A stretch of 64,000 bases of DNA from an uncultured Candidatus Saccharibacteria bacterium (lineage in GTDB: Bacteria > Patescibacteriota > Minisyncoccia > Minisyncoccales > UBA5738). Of this stretch, positions 3,617 to 61,627 are shown in pieces; positions within the stretch are counted from its first letter, which is position 1; each line of letters opens with the position of its first letter. The notes under the pieces were generated by a model. It was given only the letters and a program-made list of their open reading frames with translations, did not search any database and was not told the DNA's origin. The translations under genes were made by a program, and so were the position numbers. Location of the stretch: assembly GCA_964603475.1 (NCBI GenBank), contig CAZRVG010000002.1, forward strand, positions 9,923 through 73,922, in the 5' to 3' direction.

Positions 3617-4207
3617 ATGGTTTATAATTCCGAAATTCATCATCGGAGATCAATAAGGTATGGAAAATATGATTATTCGCGGGACGGGGCTTATTTTATC
3701 ACGGTTTGCGCGCAGAATATGAAATGCGTTTTTGGAGAAATACAAAAAGGAGAAATGAAATTGAGTGGAGCGGGGGAAATGGTTGAATATTGGTGGCGGC
3801 AATTGCCGGAAAAGTTTCAAAATATACGGCTTGACGAATTCGCGGTGATGCCAAACCATTTTCACGGTATTTTGTGGATTGTAAATCGTAAGGGAGGTCT
3901 CCCGCGTTGTAGGGGCGACCTTTATGGTCGCCCGAGTTATGATTGTTCGAACGAGAGGAGGGCGGGTACAAGACCCGCCCCTACGAAAACACTTGGCAAC
4001 ATTGTTGGCGCGTTTAAATCGTTGATGACCAATGAATATATTCGAAATGTAAAGATGGGCAAATTCCCGCCGTTTGAAAAGTCAATTTGGCAGAGAAATT
4101 ATTGGGAGCATATCGTTCGCGATGACAAAGATTTAAACCGGATTCGCGAATATATCATCAACAACCCATTGAATTGGGAGTTGGACGAATTGTACCGCGC
4201 CGTGTAG
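3617..4207 (+). CDS. REP-associated tyrosine transposase (RAYT, IS200/Y1-like) carrying an in-frame REP doublet
   Basis: HUH motif MPNHFHGILWIV and C-terminal SIWQRNYWEHIVRD...IREYIINNP. Residues ~91-125 are encoded by REP hairpins. Confidence 0.85.
   Translation: MVYNSEIHHRRSIRYGKYDYSRDGAYFITVCAQNMKCVFGEIQKGEMKLSGAGEMVEYWWRQLPEKFQNIRLDEFAVMPNHFHGILWIVNRKGGLPRCRGDLYGRPSYDCSNERRAGTRPAPTKTLGNIVGAFKSLMTNEYIRNVKMGKFPPFEKSIWQRNYWEHIVRDDKDLNRIREYIINNPLNWELDELYRAV
3909..3984. repeat. REP doublet (REPIN-like) inside the RAYT coding sequence
   Basis: gtaggggcgacctttatggtcgccc (3909-3933) and gggcgggtacaagacccgcccctac (3960-3984), with GTAG heads pointing outward. Confidence 0.85.
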
Positions 4208-4297
4208 GGGCGACCTTTATGGTCGCCCGAATTTGAGGACGGTTGAAAAATAAAATGCGGGCACCCACAAGGGGTGCCTCTACGAATGTACGGGTGG
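4204..4297. repeat. REP cluster downstream of RAYT
   Basis: gtaggggcgacctttatggtcgccc (4204-4228, identical to 3909-3933), gggcacccacaaggggtgcctctac (4249-4273), and gggtggggtgcccctac (to 4297). Confidence 0.8.
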
Positions 4298-4394: not shown

Positions 4395-4688
4395 ATGGCA
4401 ACAAAAAAAGGGCAAAATACAAAAGAAGAAAAAACCGCAAAGTGCGGGGCAAAATGCAAGCGGGAGGAATTCAAGGTTTCGGGAGGGAAGATTTTGGAAA
4501 AAGTTAAGGAGTTAATCAAAGAGGGAAATGTGCGCCGGATAATCATTATCAACGACAAAGGAGATACGCTGATGGAAATTCCTTTAACGTTTGCGGTGGT
4601 GGGCACGGCGCTGGCGCCGGTTTTGGCGGCGGTGGGCGCGCTGGCAGCATTGATCGCCAACTGCACGATTATTGTGGAGAGAAAATAG
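4395..4688 (+). CDS. DUF4342 domain-containing protein
   Basis: KVKELIKEGNVRRIIIINDKGDTLMEIPLTFAVVGTALAPVLAAVGALAALIANCTIIVER matches the DUF4342 signature. Confidence 0.85.
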   Translation: MATKKGQNTKEEKTAKCGAKCKREEFKVSGGKILEKVKELIKEGNVRRIIIINDKGDTLMEIPLTFAVVGTALAPVLAAVGALAALIANCTIIVERK

Positions 4689-4729
4689 TGAATGTATATA
4701 CATCATTTTTTCAATGCAGGATAACATTA

Positions 4730-4803
4730 AGTTTGGGCAAGGTCGCACCTTGCCAATTATCCCTTGCTACGCTTCGGGATAATCGGCAAGGAACGACCTT
4801 GGG
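4730..4803 (+). repeat. 74-nt structured repeat, copy 1 (long form of the AAGGTCG...CGACCTT element)
   Basis: agtttgggcaaggtcgcaccttgccaattatcccttgctacgcttcgggataatcggcaaggaacgaccttggg. It differs from 5319-5392 at one position. Confidence 0.85.
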
Positions 4804-4810
4804 GACGCGA

Positions 4811-5305
4811 ATGCCGATACATTTGAATTATCAGGGGACGATTTGTGAAAAGTGCGGGGCGGAATTTATCGCCTGCGGCAAAAATTGCCAATGTCCGGCG
4901 TGCGGCCAAGCAACGGACGATTTTTGTGATTTTTGCGCCGCGACAATCGCGTCGATGAAAGACCACAAGCGGGTTTATGGCGCCTATTTTCCCGAAACAT
5001 GGTTTTCGGGATCGGTTGCCGACACAATCCAGCAAATCATTTTTGAGCTGTTTGATAATTTTGAGGCCGAAACTCCAAAAGATTTTTACTTGTTTGCCAT
5101 CGAGCATTTGGCGCAAATTAAATGGGAAGAAGGACAAGAGCATTTGGCGCCGCAGGCCGAGCAGATCGCGCTTGAAGTTTTTGAGATTTACAAGAGCGAT
5201 CCGGAGTTTCGCGGCGATAATTTAAAAACCAAACCAATTGATCCGAAACTGAAGGATATGAAAAGGGACCAATTATTTAATGGTTTACCAAATGATGACG
5301 AATGA
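4811..5305 (+). CDS. hypothetical protein with N-terminal zinc ribbon
   Basis: ATG 4811 sits just after the repeat. CEKCG...CQCPACG pairs of cysteines. No family recognised. Confidence 0.55.
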   Translation: MPIHLNYQGTICEKCGAEFIACGKNCQCPACGQATDDFCDFCAATIASMKDHKRVYGAYFPETWFSGSVADTIQQIIFELFDNFEAETPKDFYLFAIEHLAQIKWEEGQEHLAPQAEQIALEVFEIYKSDPEFRGDNLKTKPIDPKLKDMKRDQLFNGLPNDDE

Positions 5306-5318
5306 AAAATCAAAAGGC

Positions 5319-5392
5319 AGTTTGGGCAAGGTCGCACCTTTCCAATTATCCCTTGCTACGCTTCGGGATAATCGGCAAGGAACGACCTTGGG
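5319..5392 (+). repeat. 74-nt structured repeat, copy 2
   Basis: Direct repeat of 4730-4803 with 1 mismatch. Confidence 0.85.
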
Positions 5393-5583
5393 AATGCGAG
5401 GGGGTTGCCTTGAAAAGAGGGGATTTTTTTTATATGATGAGGGAAATAAAATAGTTTTCAATTGCCAGTTTGCATTGAGTTTTCAATGTATCAATGAATC
5501 AAACCAAATGCGGATTTGTATTTTGTTTGAAAATTGGACAATTGGTCATTCAATGAAAATTGAAAACTGAAAATTGAAAATTT

Positions 5584-14221: not shown

Positions 14222-14286
14222 GTAGGGGCGAATGATTATTCGCCCTTTCGCGTTGAAATGCAGGCGGGTACAAGACCCGCCCCTAC
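14222..14286. repeat. REP doublet (REPIN-like)
   Basis: gtaggggcgaatgattattcgccc (14222-14245) and ggcgggtacaagacccgcccctac (14263-14286). Confidence 0.85.
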
Positions 14287-15319: not shown

Positions 15320-15379
15320 GTAGGGGCGGGTCTTGTACCCGCCCTTTCCAATTCGGGCAACCACAAGGGCTGCTCCTAC
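15320..15379. repeat. REP doublet (REPIN-like)
   Basis: gtaggggcgggtcttgtacccgccc (15320-15344) and gggcaaccacaagggctgctcctac (15355-15379). Confidence 0.85.
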
Positions 15380-20635: not shown

Positions 20636-20707
20636 ACTGTGCAAAAATTGTGCAAGGTTTCACCTTGCAAGCTTGCAAGGTGAAACCTTGCACAATTTTT
20701 GCACAGT
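20636..20707. repeat. 72-bp perfect palindrome containing the CAAGGT-TTC-ACCTTG core
   Basis: Hand-checked: 20636-20671 is the exact reverse complement of 20672-20707. Confidence 0.9.
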
Positions 20708-20717
20708 TTATCAATTT

Positions 20718-21830
20718 ATGGAAGAAATATTTTTTTTGGCGATTGAAACTTCTTGCGATGATACCGCTATCGCGGTGATGCGTGCCGAAGAAGGGGGAGG
20801 CAAACTCAAAAAAATTGAGGCGGTTTCCAATATTGTTTCGTCGCAAGTCAAATTGCATGCCGAATATGGCGGAGTGTATCCTTCTTTGGCAAAGCGGGAG
20901 CATCAAAAAAATCTGCCCGTGGTTTTTGAAGACGCGGTCAAAGGTTTTGATTTGTCAAAATTAAAATTTATCGCGGTTACCCATGGCCCGGGGTTGGATC
21001 CGTGTTTGTGGACAGGGATTAATTTTGCCCAAGATTTGGCAAAAAAATATAATTTGCCGCTGGCGGGCGCCAATCATTTGGAAGCGCATTTTTTGGCGAA
21101 CCTGATAACTCTGGGAATCGGAGAAAAAGAATTTGAAAAAAATTATTTGCCGGCAATTTGCCTGGTGGTTTCGGGTGGCCACACGCTGTTATTTTTGGCA
21201 AACGCTATCGGCGGCTATCGGTTGTTGGGGCAAACCGTGGACGACGCGGCGGGCGAGTGCTTTGACAAATCCGCGCGCATTTTGGGCTTGAGCTATCCGG
21301 GCGGACCGGAAATCGCCAAACTCGCTTCTGCGCGGGTTAGACCCACGCAAACTTACAGGGGTCCAACCCCTGTCAAACTTACAGGGGTCCAACCCCTGCG
21401 GATTGAGCTTCCGCGGCCGATGATAAATCAGAAGAATTATAATTTCAGCTTTTCAGGATTGAAAACCGCGGTACTCTATGAAGTCCAAAAACGCGAACCA
21501 AAAGTTGCTCAATCCGATGAATACAAAATCGCGATGAGTTATGAAATCCAGCAGGCGATTGTTGATGTGCTGGTGAAAAAAACCGCGCGCGCGGCAAAAG
21601 AATTTGCCGGCAAGGCAATCATTATCGGCGGCGGCGTGAGCGCCAATTTGGCATTGCGCGAGGCGATGCAAAAGATGGCCGAGGAATTAGGAATTCAATT
21701 TTTGGCGCCGTCGGGGGATTTGTCAATGGATAACGCGGCGATGGCCGGAGTCGCCGGCTATTTTGCCTTTCGCCGCGGCGAAATCATCAAACCCGAAGAT
21801 CTCAAATCCCAGCCCAATTTAAGTTTGTAG
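20718..21830 (+). CDS. tsaD: tRNA N6-adenosine threonylcarbamoyltransferase
   Basis: LAIETSCDDTAIAV, GANHLEAH and SFSGLKTA motifs. ATG 20718 is preferred because the upstream ORF extension is palindrome-encoded. Confidence 0.9.
   Translation: MEEIFFLAIETSCDDTAIAVMRAEEGGGKLKKIEAVSNIVSSQVKLHAEYGGVYPSLAKREHQKNLPVVFEDAVKGFDLSKLKFIAVTHGPGLDPCLWTGINFAQDLAKKYNLPLAGANHLEAHFLANLITLGIGEKEFEKNYLPAICLVVSGGHTLLFLANAIGGYRLLGQTVDDAAGECFDKSARILGLSYPGGPEIAKLASARVRPTQTYRGPTPVKLTGVQPLRIELPRPMINQKNYNFSFSGLKTAVLYEVQKREPKVAQSDEYKIAMSYEIQQAIVDVLVKKTARAAKEFAGKAIIIGGGVSANLALREAMQKMAEELGIQFLAPSGDLSMDNAAMAGVAGYFAFRRGEIIKPEDLKSQPNLSL
21329..21399 (+). repeat. intragenic in-frame palindromic repeat block in tsaD
   Basis: tgcgcgggttagacccacgca plus two 26-nt tandem units caaacttacaggggtccaacccctg. 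Confidence 0.85.
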
Positions 21831-21850
21831 GGGCGAATGATTATTCGCCC
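21827..21850 (+). repeat. REP unit overlapping the tsaD stop codon
   Basis: gtaggggcgaatgattattcgccc. The TAG of the GTAG head is the tsaD stop (21828-21830). Confidence 0.85.
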
Positions 21851-21878
21851 CTGCAAATGCGAACGAAAACACGCGGGC

Positions 21879-22217: not shown

Positions 22218-22235
22218 TTGCCGTGGCTGGAATGG

Positions 22236-22275
22236 GCAAGGTTTCACCTTGCAATCTTGCAAGGTGAAACCTTGC
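22236..22275. repeat. CAAGGT-TTC-ACCTTG family palindrome
   Basis: gcaaggtttcaccttgcaa-tc-ttgcaaggtgaaaccttgc. Confidence 0.85.
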
Positions 22276-22312
22276 GTTTTGTTTGATTAAAGCCGATTTT
22301 TGCGGTAAAATT

Positions 22313-25128: not shown

Positions 25129-25211
25129 GTAGGGGCGGGCTTTATGCCCGCCCGTATTTATCGGGCACAATAGGGCAACTACAATAGGACAACCACAAGG
25201 GTTGCCCCTGC
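25129..25211. repeat. REP doublet/cluster
   Basis: gtaggggcgggctttatgcccgccc (25129-25153) and ggacaaccacaagggttgcccctgc (25187-25211). Confidence 0.8.
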
Positions 25212-25234: not shown

Positions 25235-27379
25235 TTATTTGCATTCTTTGTTGGAGCACCTTACAAGCTTGCGCTTGGTTTCAACCATTAAACTGCCGCA
25301 TTTTTCGCATTTTTCGCCGGTGGGTTTGTCCCAGAGGGCGAAGTCGCAATCGGGGTAGGCCGAACAACCGTAGAAAATTTTGCGTTTCTTGGTGCGCTTT
25401 TCCACGATGTGGCCAGTGCCGCATTTGGGGCAGGGGATCTCCTTTTCAAACGCGGGCTTTTGGGGTTCCAGCGGTTCGGCGTGTTTGCATTCGGGGAATT
25501 TGGGGCAGGCCAAAAATTTGCCGAAGCGTCCCATTTTGATCACCAGATTGGCGCCGCACTTGGGGCAGATTTTGTCGGTGGCGATCGCGGTTTTGTTGGC
25601 CTTTTCAACTTCTTGGTATTTTTCTTCTAAATTTTTCGCGAACGGCTCATAAAATTCGCGCAAAACTTTTGTCCACTCGGCTTGTCCCTCGGCGATATCG
25701 TCAAATTCTTCCTCCATTTTGGCGGTAAAATCAATATCCACGATTTTTGGGAAATGTGCCACGAGCAAGTCATTGACCATTAGTCCGATCTCGGTGGGTT
25801 TTAGCGATTTTTTTTCGTCTTTTTCAATATAATTTCGCGTTTGAATGGTGGAGATAATCGGCGCGTAAGTGGAGGGGCGGCCGATGCCGTGGGCTTCCAT
25901 TGCTTTGATGAGCGTGGCTTCGTTGTAGCGCGCCGGCGGCTTGGTGAAATGCTGGTTGGCGTCAAGTTTGATAAATTCCAGCGGTTCGCCATCTTCCATT
26001 TTTGGCAAATCAAGCTCTTCAAATTTGGAGGGATAAACTTTTAAATAGCCGTCAAATTTCAATGTCTGGCCTGAAGCTCGAAATCCATAATTTGCGGGGG
26101 TTGCGCGGGTTAGACCCATGCAAGCTTGCGTGGGTCTAACCCGCGCAATATCTTCTGCGGCACATTGCGCGGAAATGTCCGCACTGATTGAATCAAAAAG
26201 CGCCGGGTTCATTTGGCTGGCGATAAATCTTTGCCAAATGAGTTCATAAAGTTTTGCTTGCGGCCGGGTGAGGTTTTTGTCGGTCAGCGCCATTTCGGGA
26301 GTTTGATCCGCGTATGCCGGGCGGATCGCCTCGTGAGCTTCTTGCGCGCCTTTGGATTTGGTTTTATAGGTTTTGAAATTCCCTGAATGATATTGGGCGC
26401 CATAAGTCTTGGTGATGAAATCCTTTGCCGCGGTTAAAGATTGAACCGACAAATTGAGCGAGTCGGTGCGGTGGTAAGTTATCAACCCCATTTCATATAG
26501 TTGTTGAGCGGTCATCATCGCGGCCTTGCCGGTCATTTTAAATCTTTGCCAGGCGGTTTGCTGCAAGGTTGAGGTGGTGAACGGCGGCAGGGGATTTTTG
26601 CGGGTTTCTTTTCTATCAATTTTTGCCACCGAATAAGCGGCGTTTTTTAAATTTTCTTCAATGGCGATGGCTTGATTTTCATCTTTTATTTCCAACTTAT
26701 CCAGCGTTTTGCCGTTGATTTTTGCCAGTCGCGCGGCAAATTCTTTTTTGGGGCCGTTTTTGGTGTTTTTTAGGTTTGCCAAAATTTCCCAATATTCTTC
26801 GGGATTGAAGGCCTCAATTTCCCGTTCGCGTTCGGCGATCAGGCGCACGGCCACGGATTGCACCCGTCCCGCTGATAATCCCTTAACGATCTTTTTCCAC
26901 AAAAACGGAGATAGCTTATAGCCCACAATGCGGTCCAAAATCCGCCGTGCCTGTTGAGCGTTAACCAAATCAATGTTGATTTCCCGCGGATTTTTCAGGG
27001 CTTCATCAATCGCGGTTTTGGTGATCTCATGAAATTCAATCCGCCGATAGAGCCTGCCTTCAACTTTTTTGGTCTTTGGCTTGCCCAGTTTCAACGCTTC
27101 AATTAAATGCCAAGCGATGGCTTCGCCCTCGCGATCCGGATCGGTGGAGATCAAAACCTCATCGGCCTTTTTGGTTTGCGCCTTCAACTCTTTTATCGTG
27201 CTTTTGCCTTTGGTCGTGATGGCGTATTTGGGAGCAAAATTATTTTCAATGTCCACGCCAAAAACAGTTCTGGGCAAGTCGCGCACATGGCCGTATGATG
27301 ATAAAATTTTATAATCGCTCCCTAAAAATTTTTGCAAAGTTTTCGCCTTGGTGGGCGATTCAACAATAATCAGCTTCAT
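25235..27379 (-). CDS. topA: DNA topoisomerase I (type IA)
   Basis: Toprim LIIVESPTKAKT, ITYHRTDS active-site region, three C-terminal CPKCG-type zinc ribbons. Confidence 0.95.
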   Translation of the reverse strand: MKLIIVESPTKAKTLQKFLGSDYKILSSYGHVRDLPRTVFGVDIENNFAPKYAITTKGKSTIKELKAQTKKADEVLISTDPDREGEAIAWHLIEALKLGKPKTKKVEGRLYRRIEFHEITKTAIDEALKNPREINIDLVNAQQARRILDRIVGYKLSPFLWKKIVKGLSAGRVQSVAVRLIAEREREIEAFNPEEYWEILANLKNTKNGPKKEFAARLAKINGKTLDKLEIKDENQAIAIEENLKNAAYSVAKIDRKETRKNPLPPFTTSTLQQTAWQRFKMTGKAAMMTAQQLYEMGLITYHRTDSLNLSVQSLTAAKDFITKTYGAQYHSGNFKTYKTKSKGAQEAHEAIRPAYADQTPEMALTDKNLTRPQAKLYELIWQRFIASQMNPALFDSISADISAQCAAEDIARVRPTQACMGLTRATPANYGFRASGQTLKFDGYLKVYPSKFEELDLPKMEDGEPLEFIKLDANQHFTKPPARYNEATLIKAMEAHGIGRPSTYAPIISTIQTRNYIEKDEKKSLKPTEIGLMVNDLLVAHFPKIVDIDFTAKMEEEFDDIAEGQAEWTKVLREFYEPFAKNLEEKYQEVEKANKTAIATDKICPKCGANLVIKMGRFGKFLACPKFPECKHAEPLEPQKPAFEKEIPCPKCGTGHIVEKRTKKRKIFYGCSAYPDCDFALWDKPTGEKCEKCGSLMVETKRKLVRCSNKECK
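26103..26146. repeat. intragenic 44-bp palindrome in topA (GCGCGGGTTAGACCC family)
   Basis: gcgcgggttagacccatgcaag|cttgcgtgggtctaacccgcgc, with one mismatch between the arms. Confidence 0.9.
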
Positions 27380-29146: not shown

Positions 29147-29177
29147 AATTTGGTCAAGGTTTCACCTTGACCAAATT
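29147..29177. repeat. CAAGGT-TTC-ACCTTG family hairpin (14-bp stem, 3-nt loop)
   Basis: aatttggtcaaggt-ttc-accttgaccaaatt. Confidence 0.85.
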
Positions 29178-30367: not shown

Positions 30368-30444
30368 GTAGGGGCGGGCTTTATGCCCGCCCTTTTGGGT
30401 CAAAATGCGGATGGGACGCGGGCGGGCATAAAGCCCGCCCCTAC
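30368..30444. repeat. REP doublet (REPIN-like)
   Basis: gtaggggcgggctttatgcccgccc (30368-30392) and gggcgggcataaagcccgcccctac (30420-30444). Confidence 0.85.
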
Positions 30445-30494
30445 AAACGCGGTGCGCGGGCAAACGCGGTGCGCGGGCAAACGCGGTGCGCGGG
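30444..30494 (+). repeat. 17-bp tandem repeat x3
   Basis: caaacgcggtgcgcggg repeated three times, immediately abutting the REP doublet. Confidence 0.9.
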
Positions 30495-30590
30495 CAAATA
30501 ATCCTTGCTATTGCGGAGGGGGGATTTTTTTGGTATGATGGGGGCATAGCAAAGATAATTTTGGGTAAGTTTTAATAATAATTTCATTCT

Positions 30591-39434: not shown

Positions 39435-41552
39435 ATGGAGAAAAAAATCACCAAAGTACAAAAAAGGGACGGGCGCGTTGTGGATTTTGATTTTGAAAGA
39501 ATAATTAACGCGATATTCAAAGCGGTGACCGCGACCGGCGAAGGCGATGAAGCGGCGGCAAAGAGAATTGCCAACGATGCCCTAAAAATTTTTAACCGGC
39601 GTTTTAAAAAAGGAGAAATTCCGGGAGTGGAGCAAGTTCAAGACATCGTTGAAGAAGTTTTGATATTGGACGGACTGACCGTTACGGCAAAGTCCTATAT
39701 TTTGTATCGGGAACAGCGGCGGCGCATCCGCGAAGCTTCGTTGGTGAGCGAGGAGGCGGTGGAGCGCGTGGACCAATATTTGGAAAAATTGGATTGGGAA
39801 GTGCAGGAAAACGCGAATATGGCCTTTTCTTTGCAAGGGTTAAACCACTACGGAGTTTCTTATATCGTGAAAAAATATTGGTTAAACAAAATCTACCCCA
39901 AAGAGATCCGCGAAGCCAACGAATCGGGGGATTTTCATTTGCACAATTTGGATACTCTGGCGCCCTATTGTTCGGGTTGGGATCTTTATGATTTTTTGAA
40001 GCGCGGGTTTGGCGGTACGCCCGGAAAGCTTGAGTCAAAGCCACCCAAGCATTTTCGCACTGTTTTGGGGCAGATTGTCAATTTCATTTACACTTTGGCC
40101 GGAGAGGTTGCCGGCGCGGTGAGTTTTTCAAATTTTGACACTTTGATCGCGCCGTTTATATATTATGACAATTTGAATTATCACCAAGTCAAGCAGGCGA
40201 TGCAGGAATTTCTGTTCAATATGGCCACGCCCACCAGAGTGGGATTTCAGTGCCCGTTTTCCAATGTCACGCTTGATTTGACGCCCGCGCCCTCGTTTGC
40301 CAAACAGCCGGTGATTATCGGCGGCAAGGCGCAAGACAAAACCTACGGCGAATTCCAGGAAGAAATGAACACCTTCAATAAAGCCTTCTATGAAGTGATG
40401 CTGGAGGGCGACAAAAACCAGCGAGTGTTCACTTTTCCCATTCCCACGGTGAGCATTACCAAAGATTTTGATTGGGAAAATCCCGCTTTGGAGCCGATGT
40501 GGGAAGCTACGGCCAAATACGGCGTTAACTACTTTACCAATTATATCAATTCGGATATGAACCCCCAAGACGTGCGCTCGATGTGTTGCCGCTTGCGATT
40601 GGATTTGACCGAATTGCACAACCGCGGCGGCGGCGGGCTTTTCGGCGCCGGCGCGTTAACGGGTTCAATCGGCGTGGTGACCATGAATATGCCGCGCATC
40701 GGATATCTTTCCAAAACCAAAAAAGAATTTTTTGATCGCTTGGGCAAAACTATGGATTTGGCCAAGGAAAGCTTGGAGCTGAAGCGCAAGACCATTGAAA
40801 ATTACGTTGAAAAGGGATTATATCCCTACACGAGGTATTATTTATCCAACATTAAAAAAGCCCGCGGATCGTATTTTAGCAATCATTTTTCCACCATCGG
40901 CCTTGTGGGGATGAACGAAATGCTGGTGAATTTTTTGGGAGAAAATATCGCGTCAAAAAAGGGCCGCCGGTTCGCGCTTGAAGTGATGAACTTTATGCGC
41001 AAGCGGATGGTGGAGTATCAAGATGAAACCAAGAATGTTTATAATTTGGAAGCCACGCCGGGAGAGTCCACCGCCTATCGCCTGTGTTTGAAAGACAAAG
41101 CCAAATATCCCGATATTGCCGCGGCAGGCACCAAAAAGAGCCCCTATTACACCAATTCCAGCCAATTGCCGGTGAATTTCACCGATGATGTGTTTGAAGC
41201 GTTGAAACTGCAAGATGATATCCAATGCCGGTATAACGGCGGCACGGTGCAGCATCTATTTTTGGGGGAGCGGTTGAGCGATACCAAAAGCGTTAAAGCC
41301 TTGGTGAAAAAGATTTTTGGAAAATTCCATCTGCCCTATATTACCCTCACGCCCACTTTCTCCATTTGTCCCACGCACGGATACATTGCCGGCGAACACT
41401 TCACTTGTCCCAAATGCGCCATCAAACAGCCCTGCGAAGTCTACACGCGCGTGGTGGGTTATCTGCGCCCGGTGACCCAATTTAACGCCGGCAAACAGCA
41501 AGAATACAAAGACCGCAAAGAATACCGCGTCAAAAAAGAAACCCTCGCCTAA
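39435..41552 (+). CDS. nrdD: anaerobic ribonucleoside-triphosphate reductase (class III)
   Basis: N-terminal ATP-cone (VQKRDGRVVDFDFERI), C-terminal zinc site CPTHG...CPKC, and glycyl-radical motif RVVGYLRPV. Confidence 0.95.
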   Translation: MEKKITKVQKRDGRVVDFDFERIINAIFKAVTATGEGDEAAAKRIANDALKIFNRRFKKGEIPGVEQVQDIVEEVLILDGLTVTAKSYILYREQRRRIREASLVSEEAVERVDQYLEKLDWEVQENANMAFSLQGLNHYGVSYIVKKYWLNKIYPKEIREANESGDFHLHNLDTLAPYCSGWDLYDFLKRGFGGTPGKLESKPPKHFRTVLGQIVNFIYTLAGEVAGAVSFSNFDTLIAPFIYYDNLNYHQVKQAMQEFLFNMATPTRVGFQCPFSNVTLDLTPAPSFAKQPVIIGGKAQDKTYGEFQEEMNTFNKAFYEVMLEGDKNQRVFTFPIPTVSITKDFDWENPALEPMWEATAKYGVNYFTNYINSDMNPQDVRSMCCRLRLDLTELHNRGGGGLFGAGALTGSIGVVTMNMPRIGYLSKTKKEFFDRLGKTMDLAKESLELKRKTIENYVEKGLYPYTRYYLSNIKKARGSYFSNHFSTIGLVGMNEMLVNFLGENIASKKGRRFALEVMNFMRKRMVEYQDETKNVYNLEATPGESTAYRLCLKDKAKYPDIAAAGTKKSPYYTNSSQLPVNFTDDVFEALKLQDDIQCRYNGGTVQHLFLGERLSDTKSVKALVKKIFGKFHLPYITLTPTFSICPTHGYIAGEHFTCPKCAIKQPCEVYTRVVGYLRPVTQFNAGKQQEYKDRKEYRVKKETLA

Positions 41553-42089: not shown

Positions 42090-42093
42090 ATTG

Positions 42094-42693
42094 ATGAAAA
42101 AAGTGGCGCAAAAAGGTGATTTTTTGGATATTTTATTGAGATCAAAGAAAACCGTTTTTTCCGTAAAAGACGTCGTTTTGCTTTGGGGCGATTCCAATAT
42201 CAGCGCGGTCCAGGTGAGATTGCATTACTATGTTAGGAACAAAAAGCTTATTCATCTGCGGCGCGGAATTTATGCCAAGGATCCAAATTATAACAAATAC
42301 GAACTGGCAAACCATATTTTGCGGCCTTCATACGTGAGTTTTGAAACCGTGTTGGCGGCGGCGGGAATAAATTTTCAATATTCTTCCCATATTTTTTCCG
42401 CGTCCCACGCAAAAAGAGAAATAGTTTGCGATGGAACGACCTATGTGTTTGCAACGATAAAAAAGGGAATTTTGACCAATCCCGCGGGCATCGATCAAAG
42501 CGGGGAATATTCCATTGCGGTTCCGGAGCGCGCGTTTTTGGACACGATATACCGGAGCAAAGATTATCATTTTGACAATTTGGAGCCGTTAAATTGGGAA
42601 AAAGTTTTTGACATTTTATCAATCTACGAAAATAAAAAAATGAGCCGGAAGGTGGGACAATACCACAAATGGTTTCAATCCGGCCGCCTGTAA
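42094..42693 (+). CDS. abiEi: type IV toxin-antitoxin/abortive-infection AbiEi-family antitoxin
   Basis: N-terminal wHTH-like region, LIHLRRGIYAK and SYVSFETVLAAAGI, typical of AbiEi. Lies directly upstream of the AbiEii gene. Confidence 0.7.
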   Translation: MKKVAQKGDFLDILLRSKKTVFSVKDVVLLWGDSNISAVQVRLHYYVRNKKLIHLRRGIYAKDPNYNKYELANHILRPSYVSFETVLAAAGINFQYSSHIFSASHAKREIVCDGTTYVFATIKKGILTNPAGIDQSGEYSIAVPERAFLDTIYRSKDYHFDNLEPLNWEKVFDILSIYENKKMSRKVGQYHKWFQSGRL

Positions 42694-42695
42694 AT

Positions 42696-43397
42696 ATGTT
42701 AAACATTGCCGTTCATAAAGAAATTTTGTTACGAATTCTGCGCGATATCTATTCCGATGAATCAATAGGTCCGCTTTTGGGTTTTAAAGGAGGCACGGCC
42801 GCTTATCTGTTCTATGGTCTTGATCGTTTTTCCGTGGATTTGGATTTTGATCTTTTGGGCGCGGCCAAAGAGGAATATGTTTTTAACCGAGTGAAAAAGA
42901 TTATTAGCGAGTACGGAACGATCAAAGATGCGCGCATCAAAAGATTCAATTTGTTTTTCTTGCTTTCTTATAGCGACAAAAAAGAGGGGGCGCAGAATAT
43001 TAAAATTGAAATAAACCGGCGCGGATTCGATTCCTGCTATAAAATAAAATCGTTTATGGGCATTCCCATGAATGTGGCGGTGCAAGAGGATATGTTCGCT
43101 TGCAAATTAATGGCGATGTATGAGCGGTTGGGAAGAACAAACCGCGATATTTACGATGTTTGGTTTTTTGGAAAAAATATGTGGCCGATAAATCGGAAAA
43201 TCGTGGAAAAAAAATCAAAGATGGCTTATGGCGAATTTTTGGATAAAATCCTCAAAAAACTGGAAAAATTCAACAATAAAAGAATTTTGGACGGATTGGG
43301 CGAATTGCTGAATGAAAAACAAAAAGATTGGGTGCGAAAAAATCTGCTAAAAGACGTTATTTTTAATATTAAGTTAATGGCACAACAAAAACTCTAA
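42696..43397 (+). CDS. abiEii: nucleotidyltransferase AbiEii/AbiGii toxin family protein (DUF1814)
   Basis: GFKGGTAAYLFYGLDRFSVDLDFD NTase motif. ATG is 3 nt after the abiEi stop. Confidence 0.8.
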   Translation: MLNIAVHKEILLRILRDIYSDESIGPLLGFKGGTAAYLFYGLDRFSVDLDFDLLGAAKEEYVFNRVKKIISEYGTIKDARIKRFNLFFLLSYSDKKEGAQNIKIEINRRGFDSCYKIKSFMGIPMNVAVQEDMFACKLMAMYERLGRTNRDIYDVWFFGKNMWPINRKIVEKKSKMAYGEFLDKILKKLEKFNNKRILDGLGELLNEKQKDWVRKNLLKDVIFNIKLMAQQKL

Positions 43398-43513: not shown

Positions 43514-44296
43514 ATGAAAATATGCGGATTGCAAAAAACAACGTTGATTGATTATCCGGGGAAGGTGGCGTGCACGGTGTTTACCGCGGGGTGTAATTTT
43601 CGGTGTCCATGGTGCTATTCCAAGGAATTGGTTTTGCCCGAATTGATCGCTCAACAGCCCGAAATCCCCGAAAGCGAGATTTTGGAATTTTTAAAAGAAA
43701 AGCAAGGTCTTTTGGAGGGCGTGGTTTTGTGCGGGGGAGAGCCCACGCTGCATCCTGATTTGCCCCAATTTTGCAAAAAGATAAAAGATTTGGGGTTTGA
43801 GGTGAAATTGGATTCCAACGGCTCCAATCCAAAAATGCTAAAAGAATTGATTGACCAAAAATTGATTGACTATGTGGCAATGGACATCAAACTTCCCAAA
43901 GAAAGATACGCCACTCTCTTTTGCGCGGGTCAGACCCACGCAAATTCAGCGCGGGTCAGACCCGCGCAATCTGCACAATCTGCGCGGGTTCGGGGGATAA
44001 GTGTTGATGATATAGAGGAAAGCATTAAAATTTTGAAAAATTCCGACATCGGCTTTGAATTTCGCACCACCTGCGCGCCGACGGTTCACACGCCCGAAGA
44101 TTTTGAAATTATGGCCAAATGGATCGGGCAAGACATTCCCGGCCGATCGCCAAAATACTTTTTGCAGAATTTCAAACCCGGACGAAACATCGACCCCAAG
44201 TTTGAAGACCTAAAACCCTTTGACAACGAATTTTTCACCGCCGCCCTTGCCAAAATCAAACCCTACGTTCCCGACTGCCACTTGCGCGACCTGTGA
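43514..44296 (+). CDS. nrdG: anaerobic ribonucleoside-triphosphate reductase activating protein (radical SAM)
   Basis: TLIDYPGKVACTVFTAGCNFRCPWCYS (CxxxCxxC) and GVVLCGGEPT. Confidence 0.9.
   Translation: MKICGLQKTTLIDYPGKVACTVFTAGCNFRCPWCYSKELVLPELIAQQPEIPESEILEFLKEKQGLLEGVVLCGGEPTLHPDLPQFCKKIKDLGFEVKLDSNGSNPKMLKELIDQKLIDYVAMDIKLPKERYATLFCAGQTHANSARVRPAQSAQSARVRGISVDDIEESIKILKNSDIGFEFRTTCAPTVHTPEDFEIMAKWIGQDIPGRSPKYFLQNFKPGRNIDPKFEDLKPFDNEFFTAALAKIKPYVPDCHLRDL
43923..43995 (+). repeat. intragenic in-frame repeat block in nrdG (GCGCGGGTCAGACCC family, about three degenerate copies)
   Basis: gcgcgggtcagacccacgca ... gcgcgggtcagacccgcgca ... tgcgcgggttcgggg. Confidence 0.85.
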
Positions 44297-56392: not shown

Positions 56393-56407
56393 CTTGCGCG
56401 ATAGGTT

Positions 56408-56450
56408 TCAGAGGGTTAGACCCTCTGAATTTTTGACCCTCTGAATTTTT
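56408..56450. repeat. intergenic member of the GGTTAGACC hairpin family with a partial tandem duplication
   Basis: tcagagggt-tag-accctctga, then accctctgaattttt duplicated. Confidence 0.7.
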
Positions 56451-61438: not shown

Positions 61439-61627
61439 TTGAGCTTATGGGGCGTAAAGGTTGGAATTTTTTCAAAAGTTTGCATAGGTGACACCTATGC
61501 AAACTTTTTTTGGCGGGCGGGCGGGGTTTTGGCGGGGGCATATTTTGATTGCGCGTGCTTTGTGATTTATAATGAATTTGCGGCGGGTGAAACCTTGAAA
61601 TTAAATAAATTGCGGTAAGGCGGAAAT

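Follow-up and report, generated by a model that had tools for sequence, protein, structure and literature searches.

In a 64-kb stretch of contig CAZRVG010000002.1 from an uncultured Candidatus Saccharibacteria bacterium (hereafter the window, numbered from its first nucleotide), the nrdG gene, encoding the activase of anaerobic ribonucleotide reductase, carries an in-frame block of short palindromic repeats. Based on its anatomy, its distribution and the company it keeps in related genomes, we conclude that the block probably consists of hairpins resembling repetitive extragenic palindromic (REP) sequences and their doublets (REPINs), which were inserted into a permissive loop of the protein, are tolerated there and were most likely mobilized by Y1-B, a Y1/HUH transposase-like gene. 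Hairpins of this kind are dispersed, between and inside genes, in a clade of genomes of the ultra-small bacteria of the Candidate Phyla Radiation (CPR; Patescibacteria). A first-pass annotation of the same DNA had described a degenerate triple copy of a dispersed repeat within nrdG; the connection of that repeat to a REP-like superfamily and to a Y1 transposase-like gene was not part of it.

Anatomy and reading frames of the nrdG insert

The nrdG product scored 200.9 bits against TIGR02495 (NrdG2; cut-off 131) and contains the radical-SAM Cys motif CNFRCPWC. The host gene and the parts of the insert are as follows.

43514 to 44296, plus strand: nrdG, anaerobic ribonucleotide reductase activase, 260 aa, host of the insert (TIGR02495, Radical_SAM domain, nrdD nearby)
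39435 to 41552: nrdD, upstream of nrdG
43922 to 43993, plus strand: in-frame insert, 72 nt or 24 codons long (C137-R160), comprising 2.5 hairpin units and spacers
43922 to 43942, plus strand: hairpin unit 1, TGCGCGGGT-CAG-ACCCACGCA, 8-bp arms with one C/A mismatch, read CAGQTHA
43948 to 43968, plus strand: hairpin unit 2, AGCGCGGGT-CAG-ACCCGCGCA, fully paired stem of 9 bp, read as ARVRPAQ in the neighbouring frame
43981 to 43995, plus strand: unit 3, truncated to the left arm TGCGCGGGTT; CGGGG follows, and a right arm is lacking downstream; read ARVRG

The sequence of positions 43920 to 43999 is ttTGCGCGGGTCAGACCCACGCAaattcaGCGCGGGTCAGACCCGCGCAatctgcacaatcTGCGCGGGTTCGGGGgata, and the open reading frame (ORF) is translated across the site as ...LPKERYATLF CAGQTHANSARVRPAQSAQSARVR GISVDDIEESIKIL..., as the first-pass annotation had it. 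Units 1 and 2 are 21-nt palindromes of the form T/A-GCGCGGGT-CAG-ACCC(A/G)CGC-A. The third unit, correctly described before as truncated, retains the left arm only and is missing at the homologous nrdG position of a related contig, L004. Because 26 nt separate the core of copy 1 from that of copy 2, the copies are read in different frames, with the codons TGC GCG GGT CAG ACC (CAGQT) in copy 1 and GCG CGG GTC AGA CCC (ARVRP) in copies 2 and 3. The frame shift between copies and the preservation of the nrdG frame by the block as a whole, both proposed earlier, were thus borne out. The units match copies in tsaD and topA of the same window, in agreement with the proposed repeat family, and a 19-mer search allowing up to 3 mismatches located 5 sites in the window against 0.00 expected from 100 shuffles.

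It had also been suggested that the element is open in at least two frames, a suggestion that stops in most frames would contradict. Six-frame translation revealed that stops are rare: the unit with a CAG loop is stop-free in 5 of 6 frames, that with a TAG loop in 4 of 6, and the related CAGGGGT, GCGTGGGT(CGG) and GCGGGGGT units in 5–6 of 6, stops being possible only at the T-NNN-A apex. Since this openness is an almost automatic consequence of the GC-rich stem, it is no evidence of adaptation to coding. As single-stranded DNA, the insert has a predicted folding energy of −27.4 kcal/mol (z = −4.1). No terminator-like site was detected at the insert, and an Rfam scan of the window returned two tRNAs only, without a match for the nrdG hairpins.

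The block is absent from the closest relative and from most orthologues

The distance between the AMDIK and FEFRTT motifs is 65 residues in the window NrdG versus 43–45 in most orthologues, and the commonest length among close relatives, which we took as the baseline, is 236 aa versus 260 aa. The insert is missing from the orthologues of 236–239 aa. The closest relative in a neighbour-joining (NJ) tree, P0003, is 90% identical outside the insert and lacks it; its sequence at the site, LFANDGISADD, represents a state common to outgroups. Judged by these alignments, the nrdG block is an insertion and not an ancestral segment. The wider motif spacing anticipated by the first-pass annotation was recovered (~20–24 extra residues), and conservation of the segment in orthologues without the repeat, which would have counted against its view, was not observed: those orthologues lack the segment.

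The same 260-aa NrdG is encoded by five independently assembled contigs (JGI, ENA, Logan and NCBI) and is therefore not an assembly artefact. Since no close structure turned up when NrdG was searched against PDB sequences, we located the loop on an AlphaFold2 model (mean predicted local distance difference test, pLDDT, 85.5). Residues 138–159 form the sole segment with pLDDT below 50, flanked by helices 129–135 and 164–175, and the insert is accordingly predicted by the model to be translated as a disordered loop of 24 residues. Comparison of the filled site in the window with the empty site of L008 revealed no target-site duplication of the kind looked for in miniature inverted-repeat transposable elements.

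In the window, an AbiEi/AbiEii-type toxin-antitoxin pair (42091 to 43397) lies between nrdD and nrdG. The corresponding gap in L004, L009, L010 and L011 contains DUF433/DUF5615 genes, DDE or rve transposases and ORFs of unknown function; given this differing cargo, the gap is a variable islet.

Other copies in the window

Further members of the family were located inside two other genes and between genes.

21329 to 21398, plus strand: three units in tsaD, TGCGCGGGTTAGACCCACGCA and two of ACAGGGGTCCAACCCCTG, read SARVRPTQTYRGPTPVKLTGVQPL
26102 to 26147, minus strand: inverted (REPIN-like) doublet in topA, TGCGCGGGTTAGACCCATGCA-agct-TGCGTGGGTCTAACCCGCGCA, read ARVRPTQACMGLTRA
20651 to 20692, no strand assigned: intergenic inverted doublet upstream of tsaD, TGCAAGGT-TTC-ACCTTGCA-agct-TGCAAGGT-GAA-ACCTTGCA
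22235 to 22276, no strand assigned: intergenic inverted doublet of GGCAAGGT/TGCAAGGT type
29149 to 29175, no strand assigned: intergenic single hairpin, TTTGGTCAAGGT-TTC-ACCTTGACCAAA
56251 to 56273, no strand assigned: intergenic hairpin, TTGCATAGGT-GCC-ACCTATGCAA, with a sister copy at 61478 to 61504
56407 to 56429, no strand assigned: intergenic hairpin, TTCAGAGGGT-TAG-ACCCTCTGAA, of a stem type also present in the Nealsonbacteria contig L166

The tsaD unit matching the nrdG units occupies 21329 to 21349. The tsaD insertion amounts to ~13 aa relative to close orthologues (a loop of 43 aa in the window versus a baseline of 30–31) and to ~20 aa in alignment with the solved TsaD structures 8iey and 6n9a; the topA doublet adds ~20 aa in alignment with the topoisomerase I structure 6ozw. 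The copies in nrdG, tsaD and topA all sit within intact genes and are not extragenic as REPs are defined to be. Hairpins within the window use only two of the three frames. The AGCT linker is common to the topA doublet and the one at 20651 to 20692. Inverted doublets include these two, the one at 22235 to 22276 and the nrdG inserts of L006, L009 and L011, and direct doublets occur in the nrdG inserts of the window, L004 and L010. Some copies in the window are half-compensated, pairing GCGCGGGT with ACCCACGC.

Other GCGCGGGT octamers in the window (23857, 28200, 36242, 40001, 44574, 50761 and 53677) look like chance occurrences. At 279 to 292, GCGCGGGTCAGgg agrees with the nrdG hairpin over the first 11 nt of the latter but has no right arm; on this resemblance, it may be a decayed copy. 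The adjacent ORFs 4688 to 5305 and 5280 to 5570 have a common N-terminal peptide, SLGKVAP[CF]QLSLATLRDNRQGTTLG, whose region includes a GGT-N3-ACC hairpin, GGCAAGGTCGCACCTTGCC, at 4736 to 4754; this is possibly a repeat of a 5′ leader region and not true coding sequence.

A hairpin superfamily with a conserved apex in CPR genomes

A metagenome scan with the 22-mer pattern TGCGYGGGTYNGACCCRCGCAA identified 34 loci, mostly on CPR-like contigs of 41–51% GC. Genes hosting in-frame hairpins in these relatives are holB, uvrC, miaB-like, DegT-like and FAD oxidoreductase genes and Y1-B itself. All three sense frames are used, giving CVG[RP]THA, AWV[GR]PTQ and LRGSDPR[KN], in both orientations, and we therefore claim no frame preference. 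Doublets are common among the 34 loci, intergenic hairpins occur as well, and hairpins recur at the same position in orthologues of different lineages. The intergenic copies are preceded by a 5′ T-run and followed by a 3′ A-run, the wrong polarity for a terminator; together with a terminator scan, this rules out intrinsic terminators. A scan of genome contigs with GCGYGGGTYRGACCCRCGC returned, among the matches listed, chance palindromes in high-GC Actinomycetota and Proteobacteria, and L046 proved to be an unrelated high-GC repeat.

Many of the hairpins fit TGC-N2-3-GGT-NNN-ACC-N2-3-GCA, a pattern in which the apex is invariant, the TGC/GCA foot is semi-conserved and the middle varies between lineages. 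We counted perfect hairpins (stem of at least 7 bp, 3-nt loop) in 409 kb of CPR-like DNA and compared the apex with a first-order Markov expectation. The GGT/ACC closing triplet was present in 100 of 244 hairpins versus 0.3 expected; since the 34 loci had been picked for one stem type, this pooled count is biased, and the count in the window alone (12 of 32) is not. The window contains 16 superfamily members and 5 near-identical copies. The stem types comprise AAAAGGGT, CAGAGGGT, CAGGGGT, TGCATAGGT, GCGAAGGT, GCGCGGGT, GCGGGGGT, GCGTGGGT, TGCAAGGT, TGGTGAGGT and GGTCAAGGT.

A further stem variant, TCTGGTGAGGT-CAA/TTG-ACCTCACCAGA, was observed in L141 (5777), L144 (1477), L159 (8255/8296) and L149 (1067), translated as SGEVKPHQI in uvrC and DegT-like genes. 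These contigs also bear the GCGYGGGT type, and several stem variants therefore coexist per genome. On L166, identical doublets TCAGAGGGT-CTA/TAG-ACCCTCTGA at 4522 to 4563 and 5388 to 5429 bracket a bAvd gene adjoining a reverse-transcriptase gene, a locus resembling a diversity-generating retroelement; the TCAGAGGGT-type stem also occurs in the window at 56407 to 56429.

Y1-B, a transposase-like gene bracketed by the hairpins

The name Y1-B is given here to an IS200-like Y1/HUH gene comprising the homologues of a 260-aa ORF on locus L151. At all six Y1-B loci examined (L151, L164, L165, L166, L167 and L170), the gene is bracketed by the hairpins in a REPtron layout, with one hairpin 7–41 nt before the start codon and another 1–41 nt after the stop. 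On L151, TGCGTGGGTCCGACCCACGCA stands 7 nt before the ATG and again 13 nt after the stop, with one copy inside the gene. The flanking stems are GCGGGGGT in L164, L167 and L170, GCAGGGGT in L165 and GCGAAGGT in L166, so that the stems across the six loci vary by lineage among GCGTGGGT, GCGGGGGT, GCAGGGGT and GCGAAGGT. On L165, all three family hairpins of the 20.8 kb are located at Y1-B. Five of the six genes, all except L166, also carry an internal hairpin at a fixed codon position (..LQ.LRGSDPR..), serving perhaps in autoregulation or representing just one more hot spot:

L151, 12010 to 12028: internal Y1-B hairpin
L164, 10207 to 10237: internal Y1-B hairpin
L165, 10222 to 10240: internal Y1-B hairpin
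L167, 3211 to 3233: internal Y1-B hairpin
L170, 1488 to 1506: internal Y1-B hairpin

The nrdG insert of L010, including its 19-nt spacer, is a near-copy of the doublet upstream of Y1-B in L164.

Homologues of Y1-B come from CPR bacteria that the sources call Pacebacteria, Nealsonbacteria and Parcubacteria. Across 18–25 sequences, the H-F-H motif (NHFHLLLKE) and the subsequent FQG.Y[RK]G motif containing the Tyr are invariant. All 18 members tested match Pfam Y1_Tnp (PF01797; best E = 1.9e-8), the L151 protein itself falling just below the gathering score (22.8 bits versus 23). With an AlphaFold2 model of Y1-B (pLDDT 81), the top Foldseek match in the PDB was 4er8_A (E = 1.5e-3, probability 1.0), the structure of a RAYT, or REP-associated tyrosine transposase (E. 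coli TnpA-REP), in complex with a REP hairpin. The TnpA proteins of IS608, ISDra2 and IS200 followed. The family is large: at 50% identity it comprises 252 clusters when E ≤ 1e-30 is required and 4,343 when the limit is E ≤ 1e-10. Based on the REPtron layout and the established biochemistry of RAYT and IS200/IS605 enzymes, we infer that Y1-B is a candidate mobilizer of the hairpins.

The same loop accepts different stems

At the nrdG site, the doublet stem differs between lineages: GCGTGGGT-CGG-ACCCACGC in L004, CAGGGGT-TCA/TGA-ACCCCTG in L006, L009 and L011, and GCGGGGGT-CCA-ACCCCCGC in L010. The insert peptides change with lineage and frame (CAGQTHA.., RGSTPVK..GVEPL, GGPTPANK..). Stem variation among nrdG-type hairpins is compensatory. 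In 17 hairpins picked by gene position and not by pairing, 88% of the cells paired, compared with 80% in shuffles (none of 500 reached the observed value) and 31–45% when partners were slid; cells changed on both sides numbered 20 versus 8.3 expected.

The loop in TsaD behaves as a hot spot too: its hairpin type differs per lineage, and in relatives it holds QTYRGSTPVKLTGVEPL, SAWVRPTQACVDPTHAS, KRVGPFLNKKGPTLL or SVEVKPPL...GGLTSTTS. In more distant CPR NrdG proteins (P0049–P0113), the loop contains peptides from other repeats, namely NFQFPISNFQ, LKSQILNPKSQTNPKSKIQ and CHSGLDPESR...LDSGFRQND, and therefore accepts several unrelated repeat families.

A second system in the window: classical RAYT with GTAG REPs

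The window also encodes a classical RAYT with REPs of its own.

3617 to 4207, plus strand: classical RAYT gene, the only Y1 gene of the window (NF047646, E = 2e-17)
3909 to 3933, 3960 to 3984, 4204 to 4228 and 4260 to 4282: GTAG REPs in or near the RAYT gene
14222 to 14285, 15320 to 15344, 21829 to 21852, 25129 to 25153 and 30368 to 30444: GTAG REPs, mostly intergenic inverted pairs

These REPs (GTAGGGGCG...CGCCC) have 8-bp stems and 5-nt loops, with a conserved foot and a variable apex. The nrdG-type hairpins have the reverse design, and because of these opposite designs the two were treated as separate families. When Y1-B was compared with the window RAYT by hhalign, the HUH region alone aligned. 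Within the RAYT gene, the stretch that separates the HUH motif from the Tyr motif contains two of the gene's own GTAG REPs, inverted relative to each other and in frame; further GTAG REPs follow directly after the stop codon.

At 30444 to 30498, a perfect 17-nt tandem repeat (CAAACGCGGTGCGCGGG, 3.2 copies) abuts a GTAG REP; the left arm of the nrdG hairpin, TGCGCGGG, recurs within CAAACGCGGTGCGCGGG.

Proposed mobilization by Y1-B and the alternatives

Insertion of the hairpins by Y1-B would proceed as follows. One or more units would enter the part of nrdG that encodes the surface loop between two helices, as single-stranded hairpin DNA, through cleavage and rejoining of the Y1-B type. A unit of 21 nt equals seven codons and is nearly stop-free, so that whole-codon insertions would keep the gene open; copies in permissive loops would survive selection and be translated as a disordered linker. 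A resident hairpin might then attract more units or be overwritten by the current variant of the genome, and such attraction or overwriting would turn the same loop into a hot spot in many lineages. We infer in addition that the inserted peptide is neutral.

Several observations weigh against this account. Neither a transposition intermediate nor a target-site signature nor an empty/filled polymorphism within one population was seen. Searches by tblastn with Y1-B across the window and the fetched CPR loci returned L151 itself only, with no homologue in the window, whose single Y1 gene is the classical RAYT with its differently designed, GTAG-tagged REPs. The hairpins are flanked by T/A-GC...GC-A and carry neither the GTAG nor the CGTC tag of described REP superfamilies. 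The window nrdG pair is in direct and not inverted orientation and is therefore not a canonical REPIN. Y1-B matched none of the NCBIfam models, including REP_Tyr_transpos, its profile had no match among PDB sequences, and its fold likeness to RAYT is modest (E = 1.5e-3, TM score 0.35/0.49). L010 and L164, which hold the near-identical doublets, are contigs from the same metagenome and may come from different genomes. Finally, P0003 is nested between the window and L004 in the NJ tree and keeps the ancestral empty site.

The last point concerns the history of the nrdG site, where presence of the insert is patchy on the tree. The window and L004 have the spacer and the trailing sequence in common, which implies common descent and does not fit purely independent insertions. 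The NJ tree is also at odds with one ancient insertion inherited vertically; given the empty site of P0003 between the two, the history needs loss, recombination or an error in the tree.

Among the alternatives to mobilization by Y1-B, we regard spread without any transposase as unlikely. Here gene conversion or template switching would spread the hairpins, the arms would be repaired from each other, and Y1-B would be incidental or only a binder. Orthologous sites that keep their position while the stem switches to the current variant of the genome agree with this, as do half-compensated copies such as GCGCGGGT/ACCCACGC in the window and the missing target-site duplication. However, new sites in many unrelated genes need de novo insertion, whole doublets have been copied between loci with their spacer, and the REPtron layout at six of six Y1-B loci is hard to call a coincidence.

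The compensatory stem changes at orthologous sites, the strong predicted folding (z = −4.1) and the recurrence at the same loop in many lineages would also be expected of a selected cis-acting structure in mRNA or DNA, acting in mRNA stability or processing or as a replication or transcription pause. This we consider quite improbable, in view of the absence of the insert from the closest relative and most orthologues, the variable orientation of the hairpins and their occurrence in intergenic regions and unrelated genes. In the sense RNA, moreover, C/A mismatches and not G-U pairs occur in copy 1 and in the copies of tsaD and topA, and neither an Rfam match nor a terminator-like tail was found.

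It is highly doubtful that the window's classical RAYT mobilizes the elements in place of Y1-B. The gene is on the same contig, and its GTAG REPs have a CGGGT...ACCCG stretch in common with the nrdG hairpin; yet the nrdG-type hairpins lack a GTAG foot and are built the other way round (with a conserved apex, where GTAG REPs have a conserved foot and a variable apex), and in relatives these hairpins flank Y1-B and not RAYT. Were the insert an adaptive new loop, rich in Arg, Ala and Gln, with an effect on NrdG function or on the contact of NrdG with NrdD, the preserved frame and the intact gene in five assemblies would be accounted for. This is very improbable, since the peptide is dictated by the palindrome, varies with frame and lineage, is predicted to be disordered and does not occur in the nearest relative. 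Local slippage or tandem duplication unrelated to a dispersed element, suggested by the adjacent units of similar period (26 nt), or an assembly artefact can practically be dismissed, given near-identical units in tsaD and topA 17–22 kb away and on dozens of other contigs, and an identical protein in five independent assemblies.

Relation to known palindromic elements

The proposed insertion of the hairpins by Y1-B has its closest parallel in REP/REPIN-RAYT systems. Such systems likewise consist of short, GC-rich palindromes that are present in many copies, are frequently paired in direct or inverted orientation and vary between lineages, together with a Y1/HUH gene that occurs once and has its own repeats on either side. 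In-frame dimers in housekeeping genes are documented there as well: Di Nocera et al. (2013, PMC3733652) reported intragenic REPs, mostly dimers encoding 20–30 aa, from Opitutus, Thauera and Rickettsia, the host genes having housekeeping or DNA-repair functions (uvr genes among them). The nrdG-type hairpins differ from REPs in the missing GTAG/CGTC tag, in a unit of only 21 nt and in the conservation of the apex GGT-N3-ACC together with the TGC/GCA foot, whereas REPs conserve the foot alone. A large share of the copies is intragenic, at recurrent hot-spot loops of CPR genes. Unlike RAYT, Y1-B has ~250 aa, weak PF01797 matches and no NCBIfam RAYT model, and the cognate gene was not found in the 64-kb window.

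Rickettsia palindromic elements (RPEs) provide a precedent (PMC10969869). They too are palindromic repeats found in frame in many unrelated, functional genes, with a peptide compatible with the fold. Classical RPE-1 is ~100–150 bp long and has a conserved peptide, in contrast to the 21-nt units and frame-dependent peptides described here; the host phylum is another, and a candidate transposase is present here. We know of no transposase linked to RPEs. IS200/IS605 elements and their miniature derivatives, the palindrome-associated transposable elements (PATEs), have in common with our system the Y1 HUH fold, recognition of subterminal hairpins and single-strand transposition without target-site duplication. 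Those elements measure hundreds of bases, their left and right ends differ, and they target a specific tetra- or pentanucleotide, whereas the mobile unit here seems to be the hairpin or hairpin pair itself.

Intragenic REPs and RPEs are thus already known; the tag-less hairpin family, the transposase clade and the hot-spot behaviour in CPR appear to be undescribed. Full-text literature searches with the hairpin sequence and with REP combined with CPR did not find the family described there, which is not proof of novelty.

Implications

A more far-reaching possibility, to which we attach rather little probability, is that Y1-B maintains landing pads at fixed places in the loops of essential genes (nrdG, tsaD, topA, holB, uvrC, miaB) and repeatedly overwrites them with the hairpin variant current in the genome by hairpin-guided strand exchange, in a long-lived, vertically inherited partnership of the REPIN-RAYT kind inside coding sequence. 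If so, disordered protein loops would be continually generated, possibly with a function for the host at the level of DNA or RNA.

The proteins of CPR bacteria often carry unexplained lineage-specific insertions, and putatively mobile 21-nt hairpins that settle in permissive loops of essential enzymes are one source of them. Annotators and structure predictors could recognize and discount peptides such as ARVRPTQ, LRGSDPRK and RGSTPV..TGVEPL. A large unnamed Y1/HUH family is linked to a simple candidate DNA substrate, and recognition of the apex versus the GTAG foot is testable. The hot spots show that loops of NrdG, TsaD and TopA tolerate 15–25 extra residues, and they represent a natural experiment in which mobile DNA makes new disordered protein segments.

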